Shown here: piece after piece, positions 21,836 through 54,000 of the stretch
How the letters are laid out: every line of letters begins with the position of its first letter
Numbering within the stretch: the first letter of the stretch is position 1
Source of the DNA: Candidatus Eiseniibacteriota bacterium
Lineage (GTDB): Bacteria > Eisenbacteria > RBG-16-71-46 > CAZAMP01
DNA length: 64,000 nt
Direction of reading: 5' to 3'
Assembly (NCBI GenBank): GCA_965224245.1
Contig: OZ245046.1
Location: 5,376,001 to 5,440,000, forward strand
Position numbers and translations under genes: made by a program
Notes under the pieces: generated by a model
Database searches by the model: none
What the model saw: the letters and a program-made list of their open reading frames with translations, nothing else
What the model was told of the DNA's origin: nothing

Positions 21836-22939
21836 ATGCGACTCGGACCCACCGGCGCCTCGCTCGCGCGCGCCTCGGTGGCGATCTCCATCGCGATGAT
21901 CCCGATCGCGTCGCCGGCGATCGCGGAGATCCTCCTCGTCCGTCCCGACGGCACGGGCGATCACCCGACGATCCAGGCCGCGCTGGACGCGTCCCATCCC
22001 AGCGACATCATCGAGCTGGCCGACGGCATCTTCCGCGGTCCCGGCAATCGGGACGTCACGACGTCCGGCCAGAGCGCCACCCTCGTTCGTTCCGCGAGCG
22101 GAGATCCGAGCGCCTGCGTGATCGAGTGCGACGGGAGTCCCGCCGAGCCGCACCGCGCGTTTCTCGTCGTGGACGACTCGCTGTGGCTGGTGGGGGTGAC
22201 GATCCGGGGCGGCTACGCGAACGACCTCTTCGGAGGGGGCGCGATCGCGTCGCTGTCGTCCTGGCTACCCCTGGACGACTGCCGCTTCGTGGGCAACGAG
22301 TCCGCGACCGCGGGCGGCGCGCTGTCGATCATCGGGGAGACCGACTCGTTTCTGTCCGCCGAGCTCGCCGACTGCGTGTTCACCGGAAACCGAGCGGCAC
22401 GCGGCGGCGCGATCGCGGTCCAGGCGACCCCCACGATCGAGCGGTGCGTGATCACGGGCAACGTGGCCACCGAGTACGGCGGCGCGATCTTCGGAACGCG
22501 AACCGGAGCCGTGCGCGAGACGACGCTGGCAGGCAATCTCGGGGGCGTGGCCGGAGGGGGCGTTTACGTGACGGAATCGGTCGACGTCTTCCGGACGATC
22601 TTCTGGGCGAACTGCGCGCCGACCGGGGCGAGCGTGCAGCTCGAGGGGCCGGCGCGCGGGGGCGGCCGCATTCGTTGCTCGATCGTCCGGGCCGAGGACG
22701 TGGTCGGCGGCGTGGCCATCGACGACACGGACCGGGACGAGAATCCGCTCCTCTGCGATCCCCGGGCGTGTTCGGAGGCTCCGACCGACGCCGGCGACGC
22801 GGCGCTCGACGCCGCGTCGGTGTGCGTGGCCGAGCGGAGCCCGTGCGGCGAACGAATCGGCGCGCGTGGCGTCGCATGCTCGGGGACGACACCCGTTCTC
22901 CGGACGAGCTGGACTCGGATCAAGGCGTGCTACCGCTGA
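21836..22939 (+). CDS. Secreted right-handed parallel beta-helix protein with C-terminal TPV..TSW..IK..Y motif
   Basis: Signal peptide, TIQAALD start, repeated FxGNxAxxGGA units, Cys-rich end, terminal TPVLRTSWTRIKACYR. Confidence 0.8.
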   Translation: MRLGPTGASLARASVAISIAMIPIASPAIAEILLVRPDGTGDHPTIQAALDASHPSDIIELADGIFRGPGNRDVTTSGQSATLVRSASGDPSACVIECDGSPAEPHRAFLVVDDSLWLVGVTIRGGYANDLFGGGAIASLSSWLPLDDCRFVGNESATAGGALSIIGETDSFLSAELADCVFTGNRAARGGAIAVQATPTIERCVITGNVATEYGGAIFGTRTGAVRETTLAGNLGGVAGGGVYVTESVDVFRTIFWANCAPTGASVQLEGPARGGGRIRCSIVRAEDVVGGVAIDDTDRDENPLLCDPRACSEAPTDAGDAALDAASVCVAERSPCGERIGARGVACSGTTPVLRTSWTRIKACYR

Positions 22940-23027
22940 GTGGCGGGGCGACCGTTCATCGGACGTCGCCGTTCGAGCGGCTCGCGCGTGGCCGCTCGGG
23001 GAGCTGGCCGGCCCTGCTCGTCCCGGA

Positions 23028-23507
23028 TCACTGAAGGCCCGGCGGGTGCCCCAGGAGCCGACGCAGGATGCCCAGCTGACCGGTGTGGTACGTCTCGTGG
23101 AAGCAGAGCCCGACGAGCTGCTCGCCGCGCGTGGATCTGCCGTCCGGTGACGGCTCGTCGAATCGCGCCTCGCCGAATCCCGGAAGCACTTCGCCGAGCC
23201 GCCGCGTCGACACCGCCAGGTCGGCCAACATCTTCTCCACCTCGTGAACGCCCGGTCCTGCCTCGACGACGTTGGCGCTTCCGCGAACGTAGCGTGCCTT
23301 CTCCTCGTCGGACCAGATCGGCTCCAGCTCCACCAGCGCGTGCATCGGGTTTCGATGGAACACGATGTGGCCGAGGATCCAGTTGACGGTGTTGCCTCCC
23401 GGCTTCGGCGCGACCAGAGCCTCGGCGTCGGTGATGCCGTGCATGTTCCTGTCGATCGCGAACTCGTTGTATCGGAGCAGCGTTCGCACCTGTTCGGCCG
23501 TCGTCAT
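23028..23507 (-). CDS. DinB family protein
   Basis: NTVNWILGHI and FHETYHTGQL; GGAGG RBS before ATG 23507. Confidence 0.8.
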   Translation of the reverse strand: MTTAEQVRTLLRYNEFAIDRNMHGITDAEALVAPKPGGNTVNWILGHIVFHRNPMHALVELEPIWSDEEKARYVRGSANVVEAGPGVHEVEKMLADLAVSTRRLGEVLPGFGEARFDEPSPDGRSTRGEQLVGLCFHETYHTGQLGILRRLLGHPPGLQ

Positions 23508-23626
23508 CGGGACACCTCCTGCCGCCCCGACCGGCCCGGGGGCGGCTCGTTGACCGGCTCGGCGCCGGTTCAGTACGCTTTCCGTCCTCGATCCGGCACC
23601 GACCCCGAAGCACGAGGAGGCGAGCC

Positions 23627-25756: not shown

Positions 25757-27013
25757 ATGGGAGAAGGCCATGGCTCGGCGCGCGTGGATGCGTGGGCTGG
25801 TCACGTGACGTTCGCACTGCCCGCCACGCCACGGGCCGACACGATCTCGGTTCCCGACTACGCGTCACTCACCGATGCTCTCGCGGCCGCCGCGTCCGGC
25901 GACACCGTCCTGGTCACGGCCGAGACCGTGCACGTCACGACCGATCAGATCGACATCCCGGCAGGTGTATGTCTCCGGAGCCTCAACGGCCGGGACGCGC
26001 ACACGATCTACGTGCCCCAGTACGGCATCAAGTTCGCCCCGGACGTGACGGACCCGGAACCCAGCATCCCCGAGGGGTTCACGATCCACGACGCCACCTC
26101 GGGTGCCTCGGTGAAGTTCCGCAACAATCCCGACGCGAGAGCCCTCGACAATCGCATCGTCAGCCTGGCAGGAGGTGCGTTTTCGGTCGGCGGCGGCGGG
26201 GGCGTCATTCACGGCAACGAGATGCTCTGTGCTCCTTTCGCCCTCGATCGGGCCCTGGACATCAATACCGGCGCCGAGACGTACCTCGAGATCTCATCCA
26301 ACGTGATCCTCTGCCCGGGTCTCGGTCTGTCCGTGTATGACGAAAAGGTAGGTTCCGCCTACGTCGAGTTCAGAAACAACACGATCGTTCACCCCGGCTA
26401 CGTCACGCAGGCCTGCAGCTGGTCCTTCGTGGACGACGTGATCGTGGTGTCCCACAACATCCTCTATGGGTTCTGGATCGACTGCTATGACCTGAGCGGC
26501 GGCGCAAGTGGCTTCAGCATGGACTACAACTGCATCTGGTTCTCGGGCTCGAGTCCTGAAACCGACTGTGATCTCTATTCTTGGCCCGGCAACTTCGAGG
26601 CGGATCCGCTCTTCTGTGACATCTCGGGACCGTCCTCGCTCGACCTCCGCCTCCGGCCCGACTCCCCGTGCCTCCACGGCGGCGAAGGGGGCTCCCTCAT
26701 CGGCGCTCTGGGTGCGGGCTGTGGCGTGGTCCACGTCGACGAAGCCGGCCGCGCGGCCACGAGTCTCGGTCTTCGTGTCATACCGGCTCCGGTGGTCGGA
26801 CGCGCATCCATCGCCTTCGACGAATCGCACGCCGGACGCTCCGCCTTCATCACGATCTACGACGTGACGGGCCGTCTCGTCGTCGAGCTCGAAGCCGAAC
26901 ACTCTCCCGTCACCTGGATCCGACGTGGCAAGGACGGTACCCCAGGTGTGTACTTCGTCGAGCTCAGAGCCAGCACGGGCGCCCGGAACGTCCAGCGAAT
27001 CGTCGCCAGATGA
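25757..27013 (+). CDS. Secreted beta-helix-like protein with C-terminal T9SS-CTD/FlgD-like domain; 5' end possibly frameshifted
   Basis: DYASLTDALAAAASGDTVLV start, FRNNTI/SHNI repeats, ADPLFC...SPC...IGALG, then IYDVTGRLV...VTW...GVYFVEL. Confidence 0.75.
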   Translation: MGEGHGSARVDAWAGHVTFALPATPRADTISVPDYASLTDALAAAASGDTVLVTAETVHVTTDQIDIPAGVCLRSLNGRDAHTIYVPQYGIKFAPDVTDPEPSIPEGFTIHDATSGASVKFRNNPDARALDNRIVSLAGGAFSVGGGGGVIHGNEMLCAPFALDRALDINTGAETYLEISSNVILCPGLGLSVYDEKVGSAYVEFRNNTIVHPGYVTQACSWSFVDDVIVVSHNILYGFWIDCYDLSGGASGFSMDYNCIWFSGSSPETDCDLYSWPGNFEADPLFCDISGPSSLDLRLRPDSPCLHGGEGGSLIGALGAGCGVVHVDEAGRAATSLGLRVIPAPVVGRASIAFDESHAGRSAFITIYDVTGRLVVELEAEHSPVTWIRRGKDGTPGVYFVELRASTGARNVQRIVAR

Positions 27014-28558: not shown

Positions 28559-28565
28559 GGACACG

Positions 28566-29696: not shown

Positions 29697-29753
29697 CCCC
29701 GGAGCCGTCGCGCCCGTCTGGTGACCGGGGTCGAGCCGCCGACAGGAGGAGGG

Positions 29754-30485
29754 ATGCATCTCGAGCGACTCGCGCGACATGCGTACCCGATCGCCGCGCT
29801 CGTCTGGCTCACGGCCGCGGCGCACGCGGGTTCCCACGCCGCCGACGAGACCCCGCGGCTGTTGCTGCACTGGCCCACGGACGACTACGTGGGGCCGTGC
29901 ACCGAAGGCTTCGTGCCCGAGACCTGTGGCGACATGGACCCCAACACCCGGTACTCCGGACCGTTCTTCAACGGCTGGACCCTGGCCGCGCTCGATCTAC
30001 CCGAGCACCTGGCGTCGTACGAGCCACCGATCCGGGAGCTGTGGTTCGGCATCGAGTACGACGGCATCTTCTTCGACCAGGTCTGTCGCGTGGACGAGCT
30101 CGTGGGCACGGACGGAATCGAGGCACCGCCGTGGCCCGAGAGTGGAAGCGGCGTGACGCTGCGCTACGCCGCGCCCATCCTCGACGACGACGGCGACGGA
30201 CTGGTCCCGATCTGGGGCATGACGTTCCAGCCGCACTCGCAGGATCCAGCGGGCGATGCGCGACTGCGGATCGTGCCGCATCCCGTCCGGGAGACGGTCG
30301 GCTTCGTCGGCGGTGACGGGAACGAGTACCTGATCTGCGAAGACGTCCTCCCGATCCTGGATCTCCAGCTGTCCGAGACCGACCCGACCGGGAACGGTAC
30401 CAACCGATGCGAGGCGGGGTGCGCCACGCCGGTCCGATCCACGTCGTGGGCCCGGATTCGCTCGGCGTACCGGGTGCCGCAATAG
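29754..30485 (+). CDS. Secreted hypothetical protein with C-terminal TPV..TSW..IR..Y motif
   Basis: AGGAGGAGG RBS, signal peptide, terminal CATPVRSTSWARIRSAYRVPQ; resembles 53365..54000. Confidence 0.75.
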   Translation: MHLERLARHAYPIAALVWLTAAAHAGSHAADETPRLLLHWPTDDYVGPCTEGFVPETCGDMDPNTRYSGPFFNGWTLAALDLPEHLASYEPPIRELWFGIEYDGIFFDQVCRVDELVGTDGIEAPPWPESGSGVTLRYAAPILDDDGDGLVPIWGMTFQPHSQDPAGDARLRIVPHPVRETVGFVGGDGNEYLICEDVLPILDLQLSETDPTGNGTNRCEAGCATPVRSTSWARIRSAYRVPQ

Positions 30486-32376: not shown

Positions 32377-33006
32377 ATCAGGGAACCAGATACGAGAACT
32401 CGAGTCCTGGACGCCTCGGAGCGCCTCTTCGCGGATCGTGGGTTCGACGCCACGTCGCTTCGGAGGATCACCCACGAGGCGGGCGTGAATCTGGCGGCCG
32501 TGCACTACCACTTCGGCTCCAAGGAGGCGCTGATCCACGCCGTCGTGGGGCGGCGCGTCACGCCGCTCAACGCCGAGCGGCTCCGCCGCCTGGATGCGAT
32601 CGACCCGTCGGCCCCACGGCGCGAACGCCTGCTCGGAACAGTCGCGGCGTTCATCGTGCCGCCCTGCGAGTTCGCCCGCCAGGCGAGCTGGGGCCCGAGG
32701 TTCGTGCGGCTGATGGGGCGAGCCAAGATGGAGTCCGGCGAGCTCTTCGCGAGCGTCCGGCGTGAGTTCTTCGACACCGTGTCCGAGCGGTTCCTCGCCG
32801 CGCTGACCGCGGTATTGCCCCAGCTGGATCCGTTGACGGTGCGCTGGCGCTTCACGATGCTCGTCGGTCTGATGATCAACGCGCTCCTGGAGGACCCGCG
32901 CGGGGAGACGGATTCGCACGATCTCTGTGATCGGGTCATCGCGTTCGCGATGGCCGGTCTCGAGGCGCCGGTGCGCGTGCATGCCGAGAAGGGACCGAGC
33001 TCATGA
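32377..33006 (+). CDS. TetR family regulator (PsrA-like); no in-frame canonical start upstream of the HTH
   Basis: Frame extends upstream of the track start: DTRTRVLDASERLFADRGFDATSLRRITHEAGVNLAAVHYHFGSKEAL; start uncertain (see finding). Confidence 0.85.
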   Translation: MREPDTRTRVLDASERLFADRGFDATSLRRITHEAGVNLAAVHYHFGSKEALIHAVVGRRVTPLNAERLRRLDAIDPSAPRRERLLGTVAAFIVPPCEFARQASWGPRFVRLMGRAKMESGELFASVRREFFDTVSERFLAALTAVLPQLDPLTVRWRFTMLVGLMINALLEDPRGETDSHDLCDRVIAFAMAGLEAPVRVHAEKGPSS

Positions 33007-34502
33007 GGACCCGCGTGTCGTCCCGAGTCGCGACCGCGCCCGCGACCGTGCTGGGGCTGGGGCTGGGGCTGGGGCTAGTGCTGGGGTGCGCCGGTGCGCC
33101 CCGGGAGGTCACGCTTCCGATCGACGTGGCCGGCGTACCGGACGCGTGGACGGCTGCCGCCGACACGAGCACCGCGGGCGGTGACGGCATCACCGCGCCC
33201 TCGACCGCGGTGAGCTGGTGGAGCACGTTCGGCGACGACACGCTCGATGCGCTGGTCGCCGAGGCCGTCGCGCACAACCACGACCTGGCGCGGGCCGCCG
33301 CGGCGGTGGACGGTGCGCTCGCTCGCGCGCGCATCGCCGGCGCCGATCTCTGGCCCCAGCTGAGCGGCTCGGCACGCGCGTCGCGAGACAAGCAGATCTT
33401 CACCGGGCTGCCGATCGGCGCGACCGGCGGGGAGCTGCCGAGCTCGGAGAGCACGTCCTACCGGGTGTCGATCGACGCGAGCTGGGAGGTCGACCTGTGG
33501 GGTCGGCTGCGCCGATCCACATCGGCGGCCGCGGCCGACGTGGAGGGTGCGCTGGCCGGCTACGCGCGGTCGCGGGATGTTCTGGCGTCGCGCGTCGCGA
33601 AGGCGTGGTTTGCGCTGATCGAGGCCGAACAGCAGGTCACGCTCGCCGCCGAGAATGCCGAGAGCCACCGGAGATCGCTCGACTACGTGGACCGCCAGTA
33701 CACCGCGGGCGTCACCACGGCGCTCGACGTTCGCCTGAGCCGCTCCGATCTGGCGGTCGCCGAATCGCAGCTCGACGCCCGGCGCGAGGCGCGCGACCGG
33801 GCGGCACGGCAGCTCGAGGTGCTCCTCGGTCGCTACCCGGGAAACGACCTGCAACCGATTGCCACGCTCCCCACGATCTCGGCTCCGGCGCCGGCCGGGC
33901 TCCCGGCCACGCTCCTTTCGCGCCGGCCGGATCTGGTCCAGGCCGAGCGTCTCTGCGCCGCGGCGGGCGCCCGCGTCTCGGCGGCACAGCGCGCGCTGCT
34001 GCCCCGCATCACGCTGACCGGATCCGCCGGACGGACCAGCGACGTCCTCGAGGATCTCACCGACGGAAGCTTCTCGATCTGGAGCCTGGTCGCCGGCCTC
34101 ACACAGCCGATCTTCCAGGGCGGTCGACTTCGCGCGCAGGTGGCGGCGTCGAGTGCGGCGGAGCGCGACGCGCTCCATGCCTACGCGAGCGCCGTGCTCG
34201 GCGCGTTCGCGGAGGTCGAGGCGGCGCTCGTGGCCGAGGAGACGCTCACCCGACAGGAGGCCCACCTCGGAGACGCCGTCGAGCACGCGATCGCGGCGAC
34301 CCGGCTGGCCGACGAGCAGTATCGCTCTGGCCTCGTCGACATCGTCACCGTACTCACGTCAAAACGCCGCGCGCTGGGTGCCGAGAGCGAGCTGCTCGCG
34401 GTCCGGCGCCGCCGACTCGACACGCGCATCGACTTACACCTGGCGCTCGGCGGCGGCTTCGACCGAGACCGGGTCCTCGACAAGGAGTCAGACCCCTCAT
34501 GA
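33003..34502 (+). CDS. RND outer membrane factor lipoprotein (NodT/OprM family)
   Basis: Lipobox VLGC, WWSTFGD, SWEVDLWGRLR, RRPDL, LALGGG. Confidence 0.92.
   Translation: MRTRVSSRVATAPATVLGLGLGLGLVLGCAGAPREVTLPIDVAGVPDAWTAAADTSTAGGDGITAPSTAVSWWSTFGDDTLDALVAEAVAHNHDLARAAAAVDGALARARIAGADLWPQLSGSARASRDKQIFTGLPIGATGGELPSSESTSYRVSIDASWEVDLWGRLRRSTSAAAADVEGALAGYARSRDVLASRVAKAWFALIEAEQQVTLAAENAESHRRSLDYVDRQYTAGVTTALDVRLSRSDLAVAESQLDARREARDRAARQLEVLLGRYPGNDLQPIATLPTISAPAPAGLPATLLSRRPDLVQAERLCAAAGARVSAAQRALLPRITLTGSAGRTSDVLEDLTDGSFSIWSLVAGLTQPIFQGGRLRAQVAASSAAERDALHAYASAVLGAFAEVEAALVAEETLTRQEAHLGDAVEHAIAATRLADEQYRSGLVDIVTVLTSKRRALGAESELLAVRRRRLDTRIDLHLALGGGFDRDRVLDKESDPS
33051..33074 (+). repeat. 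(CTGGGG)4 tandem repeat encoding LGLGLGLG
   Basis: Read directly; a fifth unit at 33081-33086. Confidence 0.9.
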
Positions 34503-43004: not shown

Positions 43005-46000
43005 TCAGCCGACGGGATGCGTCGGCCGGTCGAGTCGCGCGTATGCGATGGCCACGGTCACCGCGAGGAGCGCCAGGACGATGGGGGCCGGCGCCACGTA
43101 CGTCGCGACGGCGACACCGAGCCCGGCCAGTAGAACCAGCGCCAGAAGTCCGGCGCCCGCGCGTGTGGTTCGCGGGATGAGAAGGGGCAGCACACACACG
43201 ACCGGCGCAACGGTCCAGACGGCCGATCCCATCGGTGCCTCGCGGACGGCGGTCGTCCAGTACGACGCGGCCAGTGTCGTCCAGCACACCAGGACCGTGG
43301 CGAACGCCACCAGGAGGACACCGGCCAGCGACAGCGGCAGCGCCCAGAGACGCGGCCGGTCGGCCCAGAGGCTCCGCACGAGACTCGACAGCGCGGCCGT
43401 CGACAGGACGGCCACGATCCCGATCGCGACGATCCGAACCGATGACCAATCGGCGATGCGTGTCGTCACCGCCTCGGGAAGGGGGAACGCCGTGCGGTTC
43501 ACGAACGGCAGCGTGCCGAACACGAGGATGCCGGCGATCGTGACCGCGCTCGTGTGGACGAGGCTCGACCGCCAGGCAGCCTCGAGGCGCCATCGGACGC
43601 GAATGGCACCGTAGTAGAGCGCGGGCAACACCAGCACGAGGAGAACGGTGCTGGCCGCCAGGCCACCGATGGAGGACCAGGCGAGGTTCTCCCAGATGTC
43701 CTGACCCTGTTGTGCCTGCTCGGGAATGAAAGGCTCGAGGTAGCGTCCGAAGCGCCCGAGCTTGTCGGCCAGCCAGGCGACGTCGACGACGAGCGGCAAC
43801 AGCCCGACGATCGTCGTCCCGCTGGTCAGCAGAATCGATCGGAGGCGGATCCGGGTCCCCCGCGCGATGGCGCGGCGAAGCAGGGGCCCTCGCTCGTGCC
43901 GGGGCAGGCGCGACAGATCGGAGCCTCCAAGGACGCGCGACCGCCCGAACCAGCTCGCCGGCGGGTCGGCGGCGCCACGCGACCGGAGGATCAGCTCGGC
44001 CTCGGTGCGGAAGCGACTGGTGAGGAGGATCGCGTTGTTGACCACGATGCCGAACAGGAGCACGAGTCCGACCCGCGCCGAGGAGTCGAAGGCCTTGCCG
44101 TTCTGCCAGAAGATCATCACAACCCCGACCAGCGCCAGCGGCACCGACGAGAGCACCAGGAACGGTAGCGACCCGCTCTCGAAGAGGGCTGCGAGGATCA
44201 TGAAGATGAACGCCGCCGCCAGCACGAGCGTGAGCCGGAGGTCCTCTTCCTCCTCCTGGGTGAGGAAGCTCTGGGAGCCCTCCTCCGCCTCGTAGCCGTA
44301 TGGCAGCTCCATTCCGTCGAGCACGTTCGCGATGTACGAGCGGCGCATCTTGTCGGTGCCCACGTACTCCCAGTTCACCTTGACCGAGTAGCGCTGATCG
44401 GTGCGTGTGACCGGCCCGGTGAGGGGCTCGGTCTGCACGGCCACCACGTCCCCCAGGTGGATCTGATCGCCGCTCGGCGTCACGATCGGCGTGGACTCGA
44501 CATCGGCGAACTGGATCGTCTCGGCGTCGTCGAACGTCAGCTGCACGCGCTCCTGCTTGCCGTCGATGAGCATGCTCCAGGGGACGTCGACGCCGAGGAT
44601 GCGGCGGATGCGGGCCGACAGCTCGGCCACCGTCAGCCCGTGCTGGGCCAGCCGTTCCCGGTCGAGCGTGATCACGGTCTCCTCCAGGGACGAGCGCTCG
44701 AACCGCCCCCCCGTGGTGATCCGCGCGTTGCGCACCCGACGCTGGCGGGACACCTGGCGCAGCGTCCGCTCGGCGATCTCGTTCAGCCGTTTCGAGTTGT
44801 AGCCCGTGAGCTCGATCAGGGAGTTCAGCGACGAGCCGCCGAACGAGCCCTTGAAGTACGGCGCGTCGGCGAAGCCGCGAATGAAGATCGTCGTGCCCGC
44901 GGTGGCGTCGGCCTGCTCGACGAGGAGCGAGCGATAGAGCGTCGGCGTCGGGGTGACCAGGAGCTCGCGGTCGAACTCCACGCGCAGCACGGCCTGGTTG
45001 TCGAAGACCTGCGCGCGGGCGCGCGCGCCTTCGGGAACCGGGTCCAGCAGCTCCTCGAAGCCGAGGAGTGTCTCGGACGTCACGCGAACGTCGGTGCCCG
45101 CCGGCATCTCCAGGTACATGAAAAGCTCTTCGGACTCCGGAAACCCGGCGAAGCCACCCTTGAAGACCTCCTCGTCGTAGATCTTCCAGGCCCATCCGAA
45201 GAGCACCAGGGTAGCCGGCAGCACGAGCCACCACACCCGGATCCAGGGGCTCAGGAGACGCTCGAGCCAGGTGGGGCCTTCCTCGGTCGCGGGCCGGTCG
45301 GTCACGAAGCCCTCGAGCGCCTTCTCGTCGGTGAGGTCCCGGTCCCCGTCCGGGGTGTGCGAGACGATCCAGCGCGCCCATCCCTGGTTCAGCACCACGG
45401 GGATCCAGGCGAAGGCGATGAAGATCGACGCGGCCATCGCCGTGGTCACCGAGATCGCCAGCGGGATGTAGTACAGGGCCAGGCGCCCGGACAGGAAGAT
45501 GAACGAGAAGAACGCCACGATCGTGGTCAGCGTCGTGGCCAGGATCGGGAACATGACCTCGTTGGTTCCCGCCACGATCATCCGCGCGGCCACGCGCACC
45601 TTGGCCGCCCCCGTGAGTCCCGCGCTCGCCGCCTGCTCCAGTGCGTGCAGGCGGCGATGGATCGCGTCCAGGACCAGGATGCTGTTGTCGAGGATCAGCC
45701 CGAAGCAGACGGTCAGTCCCGAGATCGTGATGAAGTTGACCGAGAGCCTGAGGAAGTAGAAGAGGCTCAGGCAGATCACGATCGCAAAGAAGATCGACGC
45801 GACCACCGTGGCCGTCAGCCGCACCTGCCGCAGGGAGATCACCAGCAACAGGAACAGCAGGAGCAGGATCACACCCGACCGTGCGATCAGCTCTCGCAGC
45901 TTGTCCTCGAGATCGCGTCCGAGATCCTCGTCGATCGAGAACGTGACCTCGAACGGCACCGTGGCCTGGATCTCGGGAAGCGCAGCCCGAACGCGCCGGC

Positions 46001-46883
46001 TCACGCCGACCGAGTTGGATCCGCTTCGCTTCTCGACCCGGGCCTGGACCACGTTCCGGCCGTTCTCGCGCACGAAGTAGGTGGGATCGTCGAAGTCCTC
46101 CTCGACGGTGCCGAGCATCTGGAGCGTGTACGTGCGCTCCCCGCGTCGGGCGACGACGGCTCGTCGCAGCGCGTCGAGGTCGATGTCGCCGCGGATGGCC
46201 ACCAGCTTGTCCTCACCGTCGGTGTGAACGAGGCCGGCGGCCTGGAGGTCGTCGAGGCTGACCAGCGTCCGGAACACCTCGTCGGCGGTGATCCCGCGCA
46301 GGCGCAGTGCCGTGCGGTCCAGCGCGATCTTGATGATCGGCTCGGCGCCGCCCAGGATGCGGGCGTCGGCCACGCCCTCGACCGCCAGCAGGCGGGGCAC
46401 GATCCACGTCTCGGCCATGTCGCGTAGCGTGTTCGGGTCCAGGTGGGACTCGAGGCTGACGCTGAAGAACTCGTCGGTCTCGAACTCCTCGGGCACGAAG
46501 GCGGAGATCTCGGGCTGACCTGCGTTCAGCGGCAGGTTGCGGCGCACCGTCCCCAGCTGCTCGTTCAGCTCCAGACGCGCGAAGTCGATCTCCACGTCGC
46601 GGCGAAACTCCACCGCGACCGTCGACCGTCCGGCGCGGCTGGTGGAGCGGACGTGCTCGACGCCGTGCACCTTGCGGGCGGCCTCCTCGATCGGGAGCGT
46701 GATCGAGCGCTGCACGGCCTGCGGCGACGCACCGTTCCAGAGGGTCTGGATGGACAGCGACGGCAGGTCCACGTCGGGGATGGCCTCGACCTCCAGCCGG
46801 GGAACGGCGTAGAGCCCCAGCACGACGAACGCCGTGAAGAGCATCCACGTCATCACCGGATGGCGGACGAAGTACCGCGTCAT
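43005..46883 (-). CDS. RND permease subunit 2 with ~200-aa extra C-terminal membrane region
   Basis: Start at ATG 46883 (MTRYFVRHPV, overlapping the upstream stop); GLILDNSI, GIVVNNAI, RLRSILLTS; 1292 aa. Confidence 0.88.
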   Translation of the reverse strand: MTRYFVRHPVMTWMLFTAFVVLGLYAVPRLEVEAIPDVDLPSLSIQTLWNGASPQAVQRSITLPIEEAARKVHGVEHVRSTSRAGRSTVAVEFRRDVEIDFARLELNEQLGTVRRNLPLNAGQPEISAFVPEEFETDEFFSVSLESHLDPNTLRDMAETWIVPRLLAVEGVADARILGGAEPIIKIALDRTALRLRGITADEVFRTLVSLDDLQAAGLVHTDGEDKLVAIRGDIDLDALRRAVVARRGERTYTLQMLGTVEEDFDDPTYFVRENGRNVVQARVEKRSGSNSVGVSRRVRAALPEIQATVPFEVTFSIDEDLGRDLEDKLRELIARSGVILLLLFLLLVISLRQVRLTATVVASIFFAIVICLSLFYFLRLSVNFITISGLTVCFGLILDNSILVLDAIHRRLHALEQAASAGLTGAAKVRVAARMIVAGTNEVMFPILATTLTTIVAFFSFIFLSGRLALYYIPLAISVTTAMAASIFIAFAWIPVVLNQGWARWIVSHTPDGDRDLTDEKALEGFVTDRPATEEGPTWLERLLSPWIRVWWLVLPATLVLFGWAWKIYDEEVFKGGFAGFPESEELFMYLEMPAGTDVRVTSETLLGFEELLDPVPEGARARAQVFDNQAVLRVEFDRELLVTPTPTLYRSLLVEQADATAGTTIFIRGFADAPYFKGSFGGSSLNSLIELTGYNSKRLNEIAERTLRQVSRQRRVRNARITTGGRFERSSLEETVITLDRERLAQHGLTVAELSARIRRILGVDVPWSMLIDGKQERVQLTFDDAETIQFADVESTPIVTPSGDQIHLGDVVAVQTEPLTGPVTRTDQRYSVKVNWEYVGTDKMRRSYIANVLDGMELPYGYEAEEGSQSFLTQEEEEDLRLTLVLAAAFIFMILAALFESGSLPFLVLSSVPLALVGVVMIFWQNGKAFDSSARVGLVLLFGIVVNNAILLTSRFRTEAELILRSRGAADPPASWFGRSRVLGGSDLSRLPRHERGPLLRRAIARGTRIRLRSILLTSGTTIVGLLPLVVDVAWLADKLGRFGRYLEPFIPEQAQQGQDIWENLAWSSIGGLAASTVLLVLVLPALYYGAIRVRWRLEAAWRSSLVHTSAVTIAGILVFGTLPFVNRTAFPLPEAVTTRIADWSSVRIVAIGIVAVLSTAALSSLVRSLWADRPRLWALPLSLAGVLLVAFATVLVCWTTLAASYWTTAVREAPMGSAVWTVAPVVCVLPLLIPRTTRAGAGLLALVLLAGLGVAVATYVAPAPIVLALLAVTVAIAYARLDRPTHPVG

Positions 46884-49800
46884 GCGAGGCTCTCCTCGGA
46901 CGCCGCCGTCTCGTGCACCCCGGATCCCGGATCCCGGATGCGGTGGGCGAGCATGTACAGGATGGGCGTGAAGATGAGCGTGGTCGCCGTGGTCAGCGCC
47001 AGTCCGCCGATGATCGTGATCGCCAGCGGCCGCTGGAGCTGCTCGCCGCTGCCGAGCCCGATGGCCATCGGCAGCATCGCCAGAATCGTGGTGACCGTCG
47101 TCATCAGGATGGGCCGGAACCGGAGTCGGCTGCCCTCCACGATCGCCTCGAACGGCGGCAGACCGCCGGCGCGTAGCCGGCGGATCGTGTCCACCTTCAC
47201 GATGGCGTCGTTCACCGCGATTCCGAGCAGCGCCAGCACGCCGATCAGCGACAGGATGTTGATCGTGTTGCCGGTCACGGCGATCGCGAGGATCGAGCCG
47301 GCCAGCCCGATGGGGATCACGCCCGCGATCAGCAGCGGGTCCAGGAACGACTCGAACTGGGCGGCCAGGATCATGTAGACGAGCAGCACCGCCAGCACCA
47401 TCGCCCATCCGAGGTCCCGAAACGAGTCGTGCATCGCCGCCTGCTCACCCCCCTGGACGAGCGTCACGCCGCCGAACGGCCCCATCTCGTCGGCGATCGT
47501 CATCGCGTCGGACCAGACGTCGCTGAAGCCGCGTCCGCTCACGTCGGCCGTGATGGACACCATGCGTCGCTGATCGCGCCGCACGAGCTCGCGTACCGGC
47601 CGCTCCTCACTGAGGGTCACGAAGCTCCGGAGCGGCACGGTCTCGCCGGCCCCCACCATGATCGGCGAATCGAGGGCGGCGGTCAGGTCCTCGCGCTTGT
47701 GGCGCGGCAGCCGGACGGCGATGTCGATCCGCTGCTCCACCTCGTTGAACGTGGTCGCCTCGACGCCGGCCAGGCGGTTGCGGAGCTCGGCGGCGATGCG
47801 GTCGGGGTCGAGCCCGTTCTGGAGGATGCGCTCCCGATCCAGATGCGCGACCACGTTGGCGGTTCCGATGACGCGGTCGATCCGGATGTCGGTGAGCCCG
47901 TCCACCGAGGCGAGCTCGGCGGCGAGGGTCTCGGCCACCGACAGCGCCTCGGCCGCGTCGTCCGAGACGACCCCGAGCGTGAACGCCGACTCGCCGGACG
48001 CCAGCAGCTCGTCCAGACCGATTCCCTCGTCACGGAACACGTAGGCGAGACCCGGCTGCGCCTCCAGTCGGGCCACGATCGCGTCTCGGGTTTCCTGTGA
48101 ACGCCCGGCCGCGCCCCGTCCCGGATGGAGGATGATCCGCATGCGGCTCGTGTTCGGCGCCGCGTAGTCCTGCATGGCGGCCAGCGTCTTCTCGGTCCGC
48201 CCCACCTGCGTGAAGACGCGCGCCACCGACGGGTCGGAGTCGATCCAGCGGGCCAGGTCCTGCGTGAAGCTCTCGGTCTCCTCGAGCGGGGTCCCGGCCG
48301 GGAGCTCGATGTCGAGCCTCAGATCGCCACCGGACCGCGCGGGCATGAAGCCTCGATCGAGACGGGTGCCCACGACGGCCACCACGGTCAGCGACAGCAC
48401 GAGCAGCCCCAGATGCAGCACCGGCCGCCGCATGGATCGGAGCAAGAGTCCGTGATGGATGCGAGCCAGCGCGCTCAGCCCGGACTGGAAGAGCCGGAAG
48501 ATCGGCGCCGCATGGCCCGTCCGTAGCGCCAGGACGCGTGCGGCGAGCATCGGCTGGAGCAGAAGCGCCGCCGCCACCGACACCAGGAGGCTGAACGTGA
48601 CGGTCAGCGCCTGGTCCCGGAAGAAGGCGCCGGCGATGCCGGGCACGTAGACCACGGGAAAGAACACCGCGATCGTCGTGAACGTCGCCGCCGCGACCGC
48701 TCGGGCCACCTCGCTCGTGCCCGTGTACGCGGCCTCGGCCACGGTGGTCCGCTCGTCGCTCCCCGAGCGACGGAGCTCGAGATGTCGACTCACGTTCTCG
48801 AGCACGACGATGGCGTTGTCGACCAGCATGCCCGCGGCCAGCGAGAGCCCGCCGAGGCTCATCAGGTTCAGCTTCACGTCGCCGAAGTACAGCAGCGCGA
48901 ACGTGATCGTGATCGAGACCGGGATCGAGATCCCGACCACGATGGGGCTGCGCGCATCGGACAGGAAGACGAACAGAACCAGGAACGCCAGCATGCCGCC
49001 GACGATCAGCGACTGGACGAGCCCCGCGAACGAGGCGCGAACGTAGTCGGCGTCGCGGTAGATGAACGCGAAGCCGAAGTCGCCGTAGTCGGACGTGAGC
49101 GCGGTGAGCGCGGTATCGATGCTCTCGGAGACCTGGATCGTGTTGGCCTCGGGCTCCTTGTACACCAGCAGCGACACCACGCGCCGGTCCGCCAGCAGGG
49201 TGTGTCCCTCGGGCTCCTTGAAGCCATCGACGACGTCGGCCACGTCGCCGATCTGAACCGCGCTCGCGCCACGGCGGCGGATCTCGGTGGTCCGGATGTC
49301 GTCCAGCGTCTCGTACTCGCCGGCGATGCGGAGGCTCAGACGGAGCGGCCCCTGCCGGATCTTCCCTCCCGGGAACGAGACGTTGGCCTGGCTGAGCGCC
49401 TGGCGGATGTCGTCGAGCTGGATCCCGTAGATGGCCAGCCGCTCGGGATCGGGGCTCACCAGGATCTCGCGATCGCGTCCCCCGACGACCTCGGCCTGGC
49501 TGACGCCGTGCACCTGCTCCAGCGCGGGCTTGACCACCTCGGTCGCGAAGTCGGTGAGGGCACCGATCTGATCGGACCCTTCCAGGACCAGGATGCTGAT
49601 CGGACGCGACGTGGGGTCCCAGCGCAGGATGACCGGGCGGTCCGCGTCCTCGGGGAAGTCCTGCCGGAACGCCACGCGATCGATCGCTTCCCGGAGATGG
49701 AGGTTCGCGAAGTCCATCTCGGTGCCCCACTCGTACTCCACCGTGACCATGGAGACGCCTTCGCGCGAGCGTGAGACGGTGCGGCGAACCCCGGCCAGCG

Positions 49801-50011
49801 CGGTCACGGTCTCCTCGATGGGCTGGGTGACCAGACGTTCGAGATCCTCGGCGGGTACGTCGTCGTAGACGGTGAGCACGGTCAGGCGCGGATACGTGAC
49901 CTGGGGCAGCAGGTCGACCGGCAGCTTCCGGTAGCTGATCGCGCCGATCAGGACCAGGGCCAGAAACAGCATCGAGATCGCGATGGGACGCTCGATCGCC
50001 GCTCGCAGCAT
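46880..50011 (-). CDS. RND permease subunit 1
   Basis: AIERPIA, GMLVDNAIVVLEN, RFRPILMTTVTT, PLAITIIGGL. Confidence 0.92.
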   Translation of the reverse strand: MLRAAIERPIAISMLFLALVLIGAISYRKLPVDLLPQVTYPRLTVLTVYDDVPAEDLERLVTQPIEETVTALAGVRRTVSRSREGVSMVTVEYEWGTEMDFANLHLREAIDRVAFRQDFPEDADRPVILRWDPTSRPISILVLEGSDQIGALTDFATEVVKPALEQVHGVSQAEVVGGRDREILVSPDPERLAIYGIQLDDIRQALSQANVSFPGGKIRQGPLRLSLRIAGEYETLDDIRTTEIRRRGASAVQIGDVADVVDGFKEPEGHTLLADRRVVSLLVYKEPEANTIQVSESIDTALTALTSDYGDFGFAFIYRDADYVRASFAGLVQSLIVGGMLAFLVLFVFLSDARSPIVVGISIPVSITITFALLYFGDVKLNLMSLGGLSLAAGMLVDNAIVVLENVSRHLELRRSGSDERTTVAEAAYTGTSEVARAVAAATFTTIAVFFPVVYVPGIAGAFFRDQALTVTFSLLVSVAAALLLQPMLAARVLALRTGHAAPIFRLFQSGLSALARIHHGLLLRSMRRPVLHLGLLVLSLTVVAVVGTRLDRGFMPARSGGDLRLDIELPAGTPLEETESFTQDLARWIDSDPSVARVFTQVGRTEKTLAAMQDYAAPNTSRMRIILHPGRGAAGRSQETRDAIVARLEAQPGLAYVFRDEGIGLDELLASGESAFTLGVVSDDAAEALSVAETLAAELASVDGLTDIRIDRVIGTANVVAHLDRERILQNGLDPDRIAAELRNRLAGVEATTFNEVEQRIDIAVRLPRHKREDLTAALDSPIMVGAGETVPLRSFVTLSEERPVRELVRRDQRRMVSITADVSGRGFSDVWSDAMTIADEMGPFGGVTLVQGGEQAAMHDSFRDLGWAMVLAVLLVYMILAAQFESFLDPLLIAGVIPIGLAGSILAIAVTGNTINILSLIGVLALLGIAVNDAIVKVDTIRRLRAGGLPPFEAIVEGSRLRFRPILMTTVTTILAMLPMAIGLGSGEQLQRPLAITIIGGLALTTATTLIFTPILYMLAHRIRDPGSGVHETAASEESLA

Positions 50012-50055
50012 GAAGTCCCCTCTGGGGCGCTAGTGCCCCGCGTCGGAGCGGAACC

Positions 50056-51366
50056 CTAGTCGATCGCCCACGGATCGACCGTGGGACGGACGCGCTTGAC
50101 CTTGATCTTCGCGTCGTGCGCGAGGGTCAGGTGGTTCTCCACGACGACCTGGTCGCCGTCGGTGAGCGATCCGCCTTGCAGCACCTCGGCGATCTCGATC
50201 ATCGACTCGTTGCGGGCGCCGAGCTCGACGTACACCCACTTCGATCGATCATCCTCGACGCGGAAGACGAGGGGTCGGCCGTCACGGGTGAGGATGGCCT
50301 CGTGGGGCACCATCAGGCGATCGTGAAGCACGTCGCCGGCGATCGCGGCTCTCACGTACATGCCGGGCTTCGAGCTTCCGTCGGCGTTGTCGAGCTCGAC
50401 GAGGACGTGACAGGTCCGCGTGTCGGGATCGACCGTGCTCCCCACGACGTCCACGCGCGCGCTGACGGTGTCGCCGAGCGCGGTGATCTCCAGCAGGCAC
50501 GGGCGTCCGGCCACGAGCCCCTTGAGATCGGACTCGAGGACGTTGACGCGAGCCCGCAGGTGTCGCTCGTTGACGATGCTGCAGATCGTCGTCCCGACGG
50601 CGACCTGCTCGCCTTCGGCGATGGTCAGGTTCTCGACGATGCCCGCGAACGGCGCGCGAAACGCCGTTCGTTCCAGATCGAGACGTGCGCGGAGCAGGGC
50701 CGCTCGGGCGCCCGCGATCCCGCTGCGCGCGACCACGACGTCCTTGCGATACGCACCGGACCGGATGGCCTCGAACTCGCGCTCGATGTCCGAGAGATCG
50801 GGATCGTCCGGGTCGGTGCCGGTGTCCGGGCTGTCGAGGGCCGCGCGCAGCTCGCTCACGTCGACCCCTTCGGCGGCCAGGCGGGCCAGCGATTCGCGGT
50901 ACTCGGACTCGCGCTCGTCGACCTCGATCTGGTACTCGCGAGGGTCAATCTCGGCGATGAGCTGGCCCTTCCGGACGTGATCCCCTTCGTTCACCGCCAG
51001 TCGCAAGAGACGTCCACGGACCTCGGCCTCCAGCTCGGCCCGGTAGCGCGACTCGATGCGACCCTCGGCAATGATCGGGAGCACGAGATCGCCGCGGACG
51101 ACGTCGGCGGCCTCGACCGAGATGGTGCGCTCCCGCGACGCGCGGGCGGACGGCCGCGCGTCGGTGGAGTCGGCGTCGGCGGCGGTGGAGTCTGCCGACG
51201 CGCCGGCATCGGCCTCGGACTCGACCTGACATCCGACCTCGGCGAGAAGGCCGGTGAGAAGGGCCAGCGCGAGCCCGAGCGCGCCCAGCCCGCTGGCGGG
51301 TCGGGGCGGCCGTCGGGGACCACGTGAGACCCGGGATCGGGACGCGGTCGATGCTTGGTGGACCAC
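50056..51366 (-). CDS. RND periplasmic adaptor (MFP), probable lipoprotein
   Basis: Hydrophobic stretch then VGC, EGDHVRKGQL, RAPFAG, PGMYV. Confidence 0.9.
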   Translation of the reverse strand: MVHQASTASRSRVSRGPRRPPRPASGLGALGLALALLTGLLAEVGCQVESEADAGASADSTAADADSTDARPSARASRERTISVEAADVVRGDLVLPIIAEGRIESRYRAELEAEVRGRLLRLAVNEGDHVRKGQLIAEIDPREYQIEVDERESEYRESLARLAAEGVDVSELRAALDSPDTGTDPDDPDLSDIEREFEAIRSGAYRKDVVVARSGIAGARAALLRARLDLERTAFRAPFAGIVENLTIAEGEQVAVGTTICSIVNERHLRARVNVLESDLKGLVAGRPCLLEITALGDTVSARVDVVGSTVDPDTRTCHVLVELDNADGSSKPGMYVRAAIAGDVLHDRLMVPHEAILTRDGRPLVFRVEDDRSKWVYVELGARNESMIEIAEVLQGGSLTDGDQVVVENHLTLAHDAKIKVKRVRPTVDPWAID

Positions 51367-51496
51367 TGGTCAGCTCCGGCGTGAGGAGGTGCGGCTCGGG
51401 CTCGCGACGCGTTCACGCGAGTCCGAGCCGCCACGGTCGAATCGGAAGGAGTCTACCCGAAACCGATCCGAACCCCGAGCCGGACTCGCGCGGCCG

Positions 51497-51540
51497 CGAT
51501 CGGGCCCACGATCGGCCCACGATCGGGCCCACGATCGGGC
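51497..51540. repeat. Intergenic 12-bp tandem repeat CGATCGGGCCCA (~3.7 copies, one 11-bp variant)
   Basis: Units at 51497, 51509 (one G missing), 51520 and a partial unit at 51532. Confidence 0.88.
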
Positions 51541-51544
51541 TTGA

Positions 51545-52807
51545 TCAGTTCGGCGGCGTCGATTCCGTGAGCTGGTAGCAGATCACGGCCAGCGGCTCGG
51601 CATCCTCGTCGATCTCCTCCTCGTCGTCTCCGCCGGCCCCGGCACCCTGCGCCGCCGCCACCGCGCTCATGAAGTCGGTGATGACGTAGAGCCGGTCCTT
51701 GGCGAACAGCATCCGATCGTTCTCGACGTCGAGCGTGGCGCTGCCGGTCATGTTGACCTGATCCACGAAGTGACCCTCGGGGTCGAACACGTCGAACTGG
51801 ACGATCGTGCCCTCGGGCGGCGTCCGGAGCCCGCGGCTCGAGACGACCCACAGCGAGTTGTCGTCGCGTACGAAGATCTGCTCGACGCCGCGGTGGTTCT
51901 CGCGGATCTTGAACGACGCGTTCGGCATCTGGGCTCGCGTGAACTGACGGAAGCGGTCCTCGACGCGCTGGCGCTCCTCGTCGGTGCGCTCGAGGGGCTC
52001 GTACGCGCGCTCGACGATGCGATCGAACGTGCCGTCCGGGTTCCACACGTGCACGCGGTACTGATCGTTGCCGATCACCGCGTACACGCGGCCGTCGCGT
52101 CCGACGGTCCAGCGGTTGTCGAAGCTGTCCCAGACCGCCTCGTCCATGACGAGGTTCGCGAACTCGAGCGTGCGCACTTCCTCGTGATAGCGCGTGACCT
52201 CGTTGCCCTCGTCGTCGATCGACATCAGGTAGCGGGTCTGTTCGAGATGGTCGCCCTGCGGGTTGCTGACGAAGGCCCCGAACACCGTGTTGGACGGCGA
52301 GGCCGCCGCGTTCAGGAGCCCGAAGAAGCCCTCCACCTTCGGAAGCGGGACGTCGTCGAGCGGATCGCCCTCGCTGGTGAGGTGCACGAGCCGTCCGGGG
52401 AAGAGCTGCAGAACGGCGATCGACCCATCGGGCATGAAGACGAAGTCCGCCGCGGCGTTGAACTCCCCGGGCGCCTCGCCCGAGCGGCCGATGACGTCGA
52501 CGAACTGACCGTCGGCGTCGAAGATCCGGATCTCCGAGAGCTGGCCGTCGAGGAGGTACACGTTGCCGTCCTCGTCGGCCTGGATCTCGGCCACGACACC
52601 GAAGATCTGGTCGTCGTCGTCCGAGTAGCCCCCGACGCGCCAGAGCTCCTCGAGCTCGACCGTGCGCGCCGGGTTCATCGGCGTGTCGGGATTGCGGATC
52701 AGACGCTGTCCGTCCACCGTCGTTTCGGTGCCCGACCAGTCGGCGACGGCCGTCGGGGCCAGCCCGACGGCGAGGACCGCGGTCAGCGCCAGGGTGCGAG
52801 CGTGCAT
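51545..52807 (-). CDS. Secreted 6-bladed beta-propeller (NHL/TolB-like) protein
   Basis: Signal peptide from ATG 52807; DEDGNVYLLD...IFDADGQF...GRSGEAPGEF; FDVFDPEG. Confidence 0.8.
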   Translation of the reverse strand: MHARTLALTAVLAVGLAPTAVADWSGTETTVDGQRLIRNPDTPMNPARTVELEELWRVGGYSDDDDQIFGVVAEIQADEDGNVYLLDGQLSEIRIFDADGQFVDVIGRSGEAPGEFNAAADFVFMPDGSIAVLQLFPGRLVHLTSEGDPLDDVPLPKVEGFFGLLNAAASPSNTVFGAFVSNPQGDHLEQTRYLMSIDDEGNEVTRYHEEVRTLEFANLVMDEAVWDSFDNRWTVGRDGRVYAVIGNDQYRVHVWNPDGTFDRIVERAYEPLERTDEERQRVEDRFRQFTRAQMPNASFKIRENHRGVEQIFVRDDNSLWVVSSRGLRTPPEGTIVQFDVFDPEGHFVDQVNMTGSATLDVENDRMLFAKDRLYVITDFMSAVAAAQGAGAGGDDEEEIDEDAEPLAVICYQLTESTPPN

Positions 52808-53208
52808 CGTGAGACTCCAGGGTTCGAGGCGAGTGAGCGAGATCCGGAAACCGGGCCGAGGCGCCCACCAGGCGCGACCGCCATCCCGAGTACCGTGCTC
52901 GGGGGGTGGGTATTCGCCGGAAGCAGGGGCCGGATCTCGGAAGGTGGACATCGGCGTCGCATGTCGACGCCCTCGAACAGCCGATTGTACGGCCTCCGAT
53001 CACGGGGGTTGCGAGAGAAGCGGGGAGCCGAGGCGAGGCGTGCGACGCCGTCGCGAGGCGGACGTCGTATTTTATTGTCGCTTAACGATTTGAGGCCGGG
53101 GTCGGAGCCCGCGTCCCGGCATGTCGGTGGCTGTGGCGGGGCTCCCGCCTGTCGAAGCCCCTGGATCGGGCCGAATCGGGTTTTCGGGGTGCCCTGGATC
53201 TCGAGCCT

Positions 53209-53217
53209 GTGCTAGAC
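53209..53217 (+). promoter_or_regulatory. Extended -10 promoter candidate (TG-C-TAGACT)
   Basis: About 150 bp upstream of ATG 53365; the same 9-mer lies on the minus strand upstream of clpS (~12755-12763). Confidence 0.45.
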
Positions 53218-53364
53218 TTTCGTCGTTGCGCAATCCACACGTGTCTCCACCGGGCCGTTTCGGTCAGGGTCGGCATCGCGGCTTGTGCAGCGGCGAAACG
53301 TTCTAACCAGGCGCAAACAGGACAGCATCCCTCGGGCACGCAGACAGTCAGTGGAGGACACTAC

Positions 53365-54000
53365 ATGAAGCGACTCGCAATGTGTCTGGCCACGTTGATG
53401 ATTCCGGCCGCGTCGTTCGCACAGGACGACGTCGACGCGAACATGAACGTGTTCATTACGCTGCCGAGTTACGCAGGTTGCGGCGATCCCGCCTTCGAGG
53501 CGATCGATGCCGGTACCTGTGCGGACCTCGTCAGCTCTCCCTCCGGTGGACCCGGCTTCCTCTGGGTCGTGTCCAGCCGTGAGGGCGGCTACCCCGACGG
53601 TATCGGGGGCGCGCAGTTCGGCCTGAACCACGATCTCGGCGGCGGCCAGTCGTGGACCCTCTGCACGGGCGGTTCCGAGATTCCTGAGCCGGGCTTCCCG
53701 GACTCGGGTACCGGCAACGCCGTGACGTGGGCTGGCGGTTGCTACAATCCCGCCGGTTCGGCCGCGCGCGTCGGCTTCATCTCGGTCGCGCTCGACGCTG
53801 CCGGCAGCCTCGCCGTCACGGGCGATCCTCGCATCGGCGAGGCCGTGTATGCGGACTGCTCCGCGTTGCTGTACCGCATCTGCGACCGGAACCTCGGTGG
53901 TGCGGATCTCGCCAGTGGTACGAACCCGATCTGCGGGGACAACTGCGAGAGCACGCCGGTCCAGGAGACCAGCTGGGGTGCGATCAAGTCGCTCTTCTAA
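53365..54000 (+). CDS. Secreted Cys-rich hypothetical protein with C-terminal TPV..TSWG.IK..F motif
   Basis: GGAGG RBS, signal peptide MKRLAMCLATLMIPAASFA, terminal CESTPVQETSWGAIKSLF, TAA stop, own terminator. Confidence 0.85.
   Translation: MKRLAMCLATLMIPAASFAQDDVDANMNVFITLPSYAGCGDPAFEAIDAGTCADLVSSPSGGPGFLWVVSSREGGYPDGIGGAQFGLNHDLGGGQSWTLCTGGSEIPEPGFPDSGTGNAVTWAGGCYNPAGSAARVGFISVALDAAGSLAVTGDPRIGEAVYADCSALLYRICDRNLGGADLASGTNPICGDNCESTPVQETSWGAIKSLF

Follow-up and report, generated by a model that had tools for sequence, protein, structure and literature searches.

A window of 64,000 nucleotides (the whole stretch of DNA that was analysed) from contig OZ245046.1 of a Candidatus Eiseniibacteriota bacterium contained three genes whose products, predicted to be secreted, finish with the same short peptide motif, called the tail below. 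The genes, their predicted signal peptides and their tails were located as follows.

21836..22939, plus strand: gene of a secreted beta-helix/PMP-repeat protein, P0002 (367 aa), bearing the tail (open reading frame (ORF), translation, family matches, AlphaFold2 (AF2) model)
21836..21925, plus strand: predicted Sec signal peptide of P0002, residues 1-30, ending ...SPAIA/E (read from the translation)
22889..22936, plus strand: C-terminal tail TPVLRTSWTRIKACYR of P0002, then stop (translation, six-frame scan, shuffle test)
29754..30485 (longest ORF 29721..30485), plus strand: gene of a secreted protein of the P0003/P0004 family (ORF, translation, homology to P0004)
29754..29831, plus strand: predicted signal peptide MHLERLARHAYPIAALVWLTAAAHAG/S of the 29754 gene product (read from the translation, heuristic only)
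30426..30482, plus strand: C-terminal tail TPVRSTSWARIRSAYRVPQ of the 29754 gene product, then stop (translation, six-frame scan, shuffle test)
53365..54000 (longest ORF 53209..54000), plus strand: gene of a secreted beta-sandwich protein, P0005 (211 aa) (ORF, translation, AF2 model)
53365..53421, plus strand: predicted signal peptide MKRLAMCLATLMIPAASFA/Q of P0005 (read from the translation)
53953..53997, plus strand: C-terminal tail TPVQETSWGAIKSLF of P0005, then stop (translation, six-frame scan, shuffle test)

Through translation, we confirmed that the three products finish with ...CSGTTPVLRTSWTRIKACYR (21836 gene), ...CATPVRSTSWARIRSAYRVPQ (29754 gene) and ...CESTPVQETSWGAIKSLF (53365 gene), each followed by the stop codon. 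A six-frame search of the window with the expression TP[VIL]xx[ST][ST]Wxx[IVL][KR]xx[YF] revealed exactly three full motifs, all on the plus strand (22889-22933, 30426-30470 and 53953-53997), with no further copy in any frame, and the distance from the motif end to the stop was 1, 4 and 0 residues, respectively. The back-translated DNA pattern matched three times, versus a mean of 0.00 in 100 dinucleotide-preserving shuffles of the window. The genes, tails and motif positions given in a preliminary description of this DNA all stood. In each pair of the three genes the codons differed at 3-5 of the 8-9 identical tail residues; because identical residues often use different codons, the tails are not a DNA repeat, and selection acts on the peptide. 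The GC content at third codon positions of the three ORFs was 0.89, 0.87 and 0.78, a bias indicating that all three are coding.

All three N-termini, read by eye, showed a basic n-region, a hydrophobic core and an AxA-like site (...SPAIA/E, ...AAHAG/S and ...ASFA/Q), as expected from the signal peptides that had been proposed. For the second and third genes the likely start codons are 29754 and 53365, which the preliminary description had implied, rather than the starts of the longest ORFs; the exact 211-aa form of P0005 is present in the protein database, and its homologue P0006 has an identical N-terminus. P0002 matched TIGR01376 POMP_repeat (38.2 bits versus a cutoff of 15) and Chlam_PMP (E 4.6e-7), and the P0003 family protein encoded by the 29754 gene matched no Pfam or NCBIfam family. 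P0003 and P0004 shared 25% identity across 244 aa (E 8e-6) and were also joined by jackhmmer; judging from these alignments, they are weak and distant homologues. The only common ground of P0002 with P0003/P0004 in sequence comparison was the tail, and the claim of at least two passenger families thus held. When the C-terminal 45 aa of P0005 were used in a word-index search, only P0005 itself and one homologue were returned, the index being too coarse for so short a tail.

The tail was found far beyond this window. An exact-pattern scan of a species-representative genome collection returned at least 120 loci, with 124 matches listed. Eight of these (L010, L029, L032, L041, L052, L055, L085 and a 32-aa ORF in L075) look like chance, because there was no ORF, no Gly after the Trp or no nearby stop. 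At least 110 distinct tails passed a filter in which the stop had to lie 0-8 codons beyond the aromatic residue, the Trp had to be followed by G, S or T, and no fewer than 14 codons upstream had to be open. Their consensus alone was xTPVExTSWGxIKAxYR, and the Gly after the Trp and the Lys were at least 90% conserved. The DNA pattern of the scan had left the Gly position free, only the later filter taking G, S or T, and had permitted six residues at the Lys position; the conservation of both therefore exceeds what the search demanded.

Searching 1.84 billion representative proteins with a profile built from 111 tails, we detected at least 382 representative clusters at E<=0.001. The core expression was matched by 146 of the 149 best new proteins, and among these 146 no more than 2 residues separated the motif end from the C-terminus in 124, and no more than 11 in 145, so the strictly C-terminal position, suggested as a check in the preliminary description, was borne out by all of them except one. 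Counts among the 149 were T145, P147, V148, T146, W149, G144, I149 and K147, with an R following the aromatic residue in 111. The overall consensus is T-P-V-E-x-T-[ST]-W-G-x-I-K-[AS]-[LM]-[YF]-R and then the stop, about 16 residues. A Cys within 4 aa upstream of the motif was present in 39 of 111 locus tails and in 92 of 146 representatives; judging from these counts it is frequent and not part of the motif, and the C-x(1-3) first described as the beginning of the signal was dropped.

Among the matches listed, the carriers were mostly metagenome-assembled genomes (MAGs) of Candidatus Eisenbacteria/Eiseniibacteriota or unnamed bins, and other labels were Latescibacterota, Krumholzibacteriia, Aegiribacteria, Effluviviaceae and Gemmatimonadota; the concentration in Eisenbacteria, Krumholzibacteriia and related MAGs agrees with the occurrence given in the preliminary description. 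The carriers include the closed MAG chromosomes OZ244990.1, OZ252098.1 and OZ244210.1. Bona fide tails were also seen in L015, L090, L111, L108, L082 and L093, from MAGs labelled Udaeobacter, Saccharimonadales, Komeilibacteria, Myxococcota, Bacteroidota and Fibrobacteraceae, which could be due to mis-binning or horizontal transfer. The number of tails per assembly reached at least 7 among the matches listed (three lie in the 64-kb window), and 20 of 79 loci of 4 kb had two or more tail ORFs when the variants SPVE..TWG.IK and TWG.VK were included. An alignment search with longer flanks found at least 35 tail proteins, with source names such as 'hypothetical', 'lamin tail domain-containing' and 'DNRLRE domain-containing', and in an ESM Atlas search with the tail the only matches were unnamed Eiseniibacteriota clusters, scoring up to 0.89. 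A conserved, C-terminal, portable tag of 16 residues thus exists far beyond the three genes.

The portability first supposed from three genes became clear when the passengers were compared. After removal of signal peptide and tail, the bodies of 61 locus proteins fell into 33 BLAST clusters, and 91 full-length representatives into 39, the largest being the beta-helix family with 37 members. Pfam domains were found in 21 of 58 locus proteins (Beta_helix/Chlam_PMP, FG-GAP, LTD, cupredoxin, CHRD, NHL and Spondin_N) and in 11 of 65 representatives (FG-GAP, NHL, PD40, BACON, CBM96 and CBM_4_9); these 65 were taken from the 91, and the other 26 had already been placed in the beta-helix family. NCBIfam matches above cutoff were spondin (NF038123) and DNRLRE (NF033679), and a ScyF-like NHL protein was found below cutoff among the tail carriers. 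Spondin, DNRLRE and ScyF-like NHL domains combine elsewhere with PEP-CTERM or other anchors. The tail proteins are small (median lengths 249-289 aa). A crude hydrophobicity heuristic detected a hydrophobic, signal-like segment at the N-terminus of 60 of the 67 locus ORFs whose 5' side was complete and of 71 of the 91 representatives, and few of the proteins were lipoprotein-like (3 of 58 locus proteins and 10 of 91 representatives).

The beta-helix family allowed the tail to be compared with the C-terminal domain (CTD) of the type IX secretion system (T9SS). We classified the best 120 of 402 homologues of the P0002 body by their C-termini. The tail ended 79 of the 120 (8 by the strict and 71 by the loose pattern), FlgD_ig was present in 10 according to precomputed Pfam matches, and 9 of the 16 longer remaining homologues had sub-threshold FlgD_ig or Por_Secre_tail; the rest of the 120 were fragments or other forms. 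None of these 120 carried tail and CTD together. In the CTD forms, linker and CTD came after the same conserved '...AWPVGC' end, and no TPV..TSWG segment was found in the CTD-bearing homologues. Because the junction is the same and the two are mutually exclusive, the tail and the long CTD are alternative C-termini of one passenger family. This mutual exclusivity, seen at sequence level, is the strongest argument for the tail as a targeting device. A gene with a long CTD also exists in the window itself, 2.8 kb downstream of the first tail gene:

25757..27013, plus strand: neighbouring gene with a T9SS type A sorting domain at the end of its product (TIGR04183, 23.7 bits versus a cutoff of 23)

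The match covers residues 343-416 of the product, and Pfam Por_Secre_tail gave E 5e-4, below its cutoff; with this CTD present, both C-terminal types are in use in the genome. Among the neighbours of tail genes, a BLAST cluster of 11 loci likewise shares a C-terminal domain, identified as FlgD_ig in 3 of the 4 members tested. TIGR04183, PF18962 and PF13860 gave no match in the three window proteins and their tails, and T9SS CTD models gave none in 58 locus proteins (Pfam) or in 35 locus proteins and tails (NCBIfam). The test works, since the CTD protein of the window was detected.

A tail at or near the C-terminus that ends in an aromatic residue and R might also be the ligand of a periplasmic PDZ-type or tail-specific protease or sensor, that is, a degron or stress signal, since PDZ domains read C-terminal peptides. 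However, the register to the free carboxylate varies, with 0-11 trailing residues and with tandem or extended forms, the conservation reaches 15 residues upstream, far beyond what a PDZ ligand needs, and the mutual exclusivity with T9SS CTDs points to targeting. We consider a degron very improbable.

The structure predictions gave a less definite picture of the tail. In the AF2 model of P0002, a confident beta-helix was built at residues 32-268 with a helix at 5-25 ahead of it, and the predicted local distance difference test (pLDDT) score was about 30 over residues 269-367, with a helix drawn at 359-366. The model of P0005 had a mean pLDDT of 67.5, and its tail is modelled as neither confidently free nor confidently packed. 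From the same model, the best PDB matches by Foldseek were cohesin-like beta-sandwiches (E 4e-3, template modelling score 0.3-0.5); these matches are not significant, and a cohesin-dockerin-like system is therefore not claimed. The helical hydrophobic moment of the tail was 0.41 versus 0.36 in shuffles, a value reached by 38% of shuffles, and the beta-periodicity moment was 0.55 versus 0.35, reached by 15%. The mean Eisenberg hydrophobicity was -0.06, in line with the earlier statement that the tail has no transmembrane helix.

The preliminary description had read the tail as a short amphipathic helix, from which it might be argued that Trp, Tyr, Lys and Arg place it on a membrane leaflet or on lipopolysaccharide as an autonomous interfacial anchor that needs no partner. 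AF2 draws a W..Y helix in both modelled window proteins (P0002 and P0005), the composition (W, I, L/M and Y/F with K and R) resembles interfacial peptides, and the tandem cores of one protein, P0148, would suit an avidity-based binder. But the amphipathic helix was not upheld: the helical moment hardly differs from that of shuffles, the mean hydrophobicity lies near zero, the AF2 helix is of low confidence (pLDDT 30-60) and a conserved Gly lies within the supposed helix. Moreover, in a generic lipid binder one would not expect T, P, V, T, G and K to be near-invariant from one unrelated family to another. An anchor of this kind is unlikely in our judgement.

The tail might instead lack an independent function and be only the conserved last structural element of its passengers or what is left of a truncated T9SS CTD, and the TPVQE beta-strand beside the sandwich in the P0005 model could be read so. 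Yet the same 16 residues occur on beta-helices, beta-propellers, cupredoxins, LTD, CHRD and many unknown folds, the CTD-bearing homologues lack TPV..TSWG, the tail matches no T9SS model, and purifying selection acts at the protein level. These findings leave that explanation close to refuted.

Among the neighbours of tail genes, a Peptidase_C25 gene was present within 2 kb in 12 of 79 loci, spanning four passenger families; eight were found with our own hidden Markov model (HMM), and L007, L047, L066 and L073 by BLAST clustering (with Pfam on L007 and L073). In L001, L042, L063, L016 and L071/L072 the C25 gene lies directly downstream on the same strand. L063 (665-4043), L001, L042, L016 and L071/L072 were operon-like, with one or two tail paralogues followed by a same-strand Peptidase_C25 with a signal or transmembrane segment. 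The tail could accordingly be thought of as the substrate tag of a C25-family (gingipain/PorU-like) cysteine peptidase, which would cleave it and maybe transfer the protein to a surface polymer, as a miniature PorU sortase, and the C25 peptidases near tails do match the PorU model NF033707. These matches, however, are weak (45-99 bits versus a cutoff of 420) and cover the shared catalytic domain only, and a gingipain-type propeptide on two of the peptidases suggests that these are ordinary secreted proteases. The 12 loci also reduce to a few syntenic groups and may reflect the background density of C25 genes in these genomes, cytoplasmic genes (DUF2007, thioesterase) lie between tail gene and C25 gene in L007-type loci, and a scan of 37 ORFs of the window found no C25 gene. 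A complex prediction of the L063 tail protein (residues 20-214) with the downstream C25 peptidase (170-623) scored 0.00 and was counted neither for nor against binding. We regard the C25 neighbour as a lead and not as evidence of function, and its role as the peptidase that cleaves the tail as improbable.

Considering the conservation, the C-terminal position, the diverse passengers and the alternation with the CTD, we propose that the tail serves Sec-exported proteins of Eisenbacteria-like bacteria in the Fibrobacteres-Chlorobi-Bacteroidetes (FCB) group as a portable C-terminal tag for sorting or anchoring, with a probability of roughly 0.6. Its probable function, parallel to that of the T9SS CTD, would be to sort proteins after Sec export or to retain them at the surface through a dedicated partner. 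In the proposed mechanism, the signal peptide would first carry the protein across the inner membrane. The tail, joined directly to the final structural element of the passenger, would then be exposed as a linear recognition peptide; this step is partly shown, in that dozens of unrelated folds bear the tail and AF2 gives no confident placement of it within the fold. A dedicated envelope protein would bind the tail and pass the passenger to or through the outer membrane, or hold it at the surface. In this way the tail would do the job of a T9SS-type CTD of about 90 aa, as suggested by the mutual exclusivity within one passenger family. The route may be the T9SS via an adaptor, as for type B CTDs, or a separate one, and the tail may be either retained or cleaved off.

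Several points weigh against a sorting tag of this kind. Nothing in the window points to a receptor, translocon or processing enzyme, and the carriers are all uncultured MAGs, so that exit of the tagged proteins from the periplasm is a prediction from sequence. In the AF2 model of P0005, TPVQE forms a strand (197-201) and WGAIKSL a helix (204-210) at a pLDDT of about 60, so the tail may pack partly onto its passenger. The signal heuristic failed in 7 of 67 locus ORFs and 20 of 91 representatives, some of which are fragments or have wrong starts, and all counts from the genome scan and the protein searches are lower bounds biased toward the consensus. Further, 3-11 extra residues follow the motif in 21 of 146 representatives, and P0190 has 28 more; such trailing residues fit a binding motif but are unusual for a terminal export signal. 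P0148 (272 aa, lipoprotein-like, with an LMSGC lipobox) has four tandem TWGxIKxxY cores with short spacers in its last 70 residues; it is the sole case of core repetition seen and, among the 146 representatives, the sole exception to the rule of at most 11 trailing residues. Its tandem copies, we would argue, suggest that the core acts as a binding unit.

We might speculate further that the sorting tag belongs to a new Eiseniibacteriota/FCB sorting pathway, in which a dedicated receptor or translocon recognises the tail in the periplasm, a C25 PorU-like transpeptidase maybe processes it, and its passenger is delivered to the surface parallel to the T9SS. This extension is tentative, and we think it rather doubtful. 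If it is true, such a pathway would serve a large and mostly uncharacterised secretome, which at 50% identity amounts to at least 382 clusters.

The study of C-terminal sorting tags has opened the way, time and again, to new envelope machinery (sortase, exosortase, rhombosortase, myxosortase and the T9SS). The present tag shows very strong conservation, is abundant and occurs only in lineages that have no cultured members. Its reader is probably none of the known enzymes, because the tail has no transmembrane helix and is a fifth of the size of a T9SS CTD. The tag offers a handle for defining the surface and secreted proteome of Eisenbacteria-type MAGs, mostly without a Pfam family, and for finding the cognate machinery via phylogenetic profiling, and an HMM of the tail would improve the annotation of thousands of 'hypothetical proteins'.

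The window contained further secretion, efflux and metabolic genes. A type II secretion/type IV pilus-like gene set occupies 1-4557 on the minus strand:

1-456 and 941-1480, minus strand: prepilin-type N-methyl proteins
1464-2708, minus strand: GspF-like platform protein
2737-4557, minus strand: GspE/MshE-like ATPase

No secretin was seen in the window, and a link between the tail and these genes would be pure speculation. Two resistance-nodulation-division (RND) efflux clusters were found. The one at 33003-39018 has an OEP gene (33003-34502) and then a 1621-aa ORF that matches AcrB only from residue 552; the one at 43005-51366 has AcrB-type ORFs at 43005-47408 and 46880-50011, overlapping by about 530 nt, and an HlyD-type adaptor at 50056-51366. 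The long RND ORFs probably over-extend upstream in the high-GC DNA. An NHL/6-bladed beta-propeller protein, a ScyF-like relative, is encoded next to the third tail gene (51545-52951, minus strand); it has no tail and no CTD, and its C-terminus is acidic. Ordinary metabolism is represented by a 2-oxoacid dehydrogenase complex (E1 alpha, E1 beta, E2 and E3) with a lipoyl ligase at 14679-21211, and by a glyoxylate-shunt pair (isocitrate lyase and malate synthase) adjoining an ScfR-type regulator at 57943-62747.

The tag is undescribed in the libraries and literature searched. In Pfam and NCBIfam, the three window tails matched no family at E<=10 and three consensus-like tails none at E<=1, so that no characterised model stands against the novelty first supposed. 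Literature searches with motif strings found no paper on the tail; searches on Eisenbacteria found none with type IX secretion, and only unrelated work with C-terminal and secretion. An outer membrane protein beta-signal, a Lys-Trp crosslinked motif like that of ribosomally synthesized and post-translationally modified peptides, and a Bacteroidetes O-glycosylation sequon were considered as well; they misfit the pattern of conserved residues and found no support.

Compared with the tripartite signals LPXTG, PEP-CTERM, GlyGly-CTERM and MYXO-CTERM, by the criteria given in 10.1101/2023.06.07.544157, the likeness lies in a short near-C-terminal signature with at least three near-invariant residues, in several copies per genome, and in N-terminal signal peptides on diverse passengers. 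The tail has near-invariant T-P-V (145, 147 and 148 of 149), lies near the C-terminus, occurs several times per genome, and is borne by diverse passengers, most with signal peptides. The transmembrane segment of a tripartite signal is lacking, with about 9 residues after the motif and no hydrophobic run in any genome-scan tail, and in place of a basic cluster of 2-5 residues the tail usually has one Arg behind the aromatic residue and one internal Lys. Having neither transmembrane segment nor Arg cluster, the tail cannot be handled by an intramembrane sortase-type mechanism. The Cys is invariant in MYXO-CTERM-type signals, whereas the upstream Cys of the tail is not.

C-terminal amphipathic-helix anchors, for example that of PBP5/DacA, show little sequence conservation and a clear amphipathic character. 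They resemble the tail as short, possibly helical C-terminal segments of periplasmic proteins, but in the tail conservation is high, and the helical moment does not clearly exceed that of shuffles of the same composition (0.41 versus 0.36).

The T9SS CTD (TIGR04183/PF18962 and PF13860) is a folded Ig-like 3+4 beta-sandwich of seven strands, as described in PMC11285876; the tail of about 16 residues is, as the preliminary description had stated, far shorter, and cannot form that fold. In place of a folded domain of about 70-100 aa there is a module of 16 residues, and the sequence upstream of it differs between families. Type B T9SS CTDs with cognate PorP/SprF-like adaptors form a second class of C-terminal signal that uses one translocon through its own adaptor. 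They are a precedent for a second signal class; but these domains are about 90 aa, unlike the tail, and no adaptor gene was found beside the tail genes. With the T9SS CTD the tail shares the C-terminal position on Sec-exported proteins, the portability, the many copies per genome and the occurrence in FCB-group lineages, and the two replace one another at the same junction in the beta-helix family. Our best reading is that the tag is non-tripartite and new.

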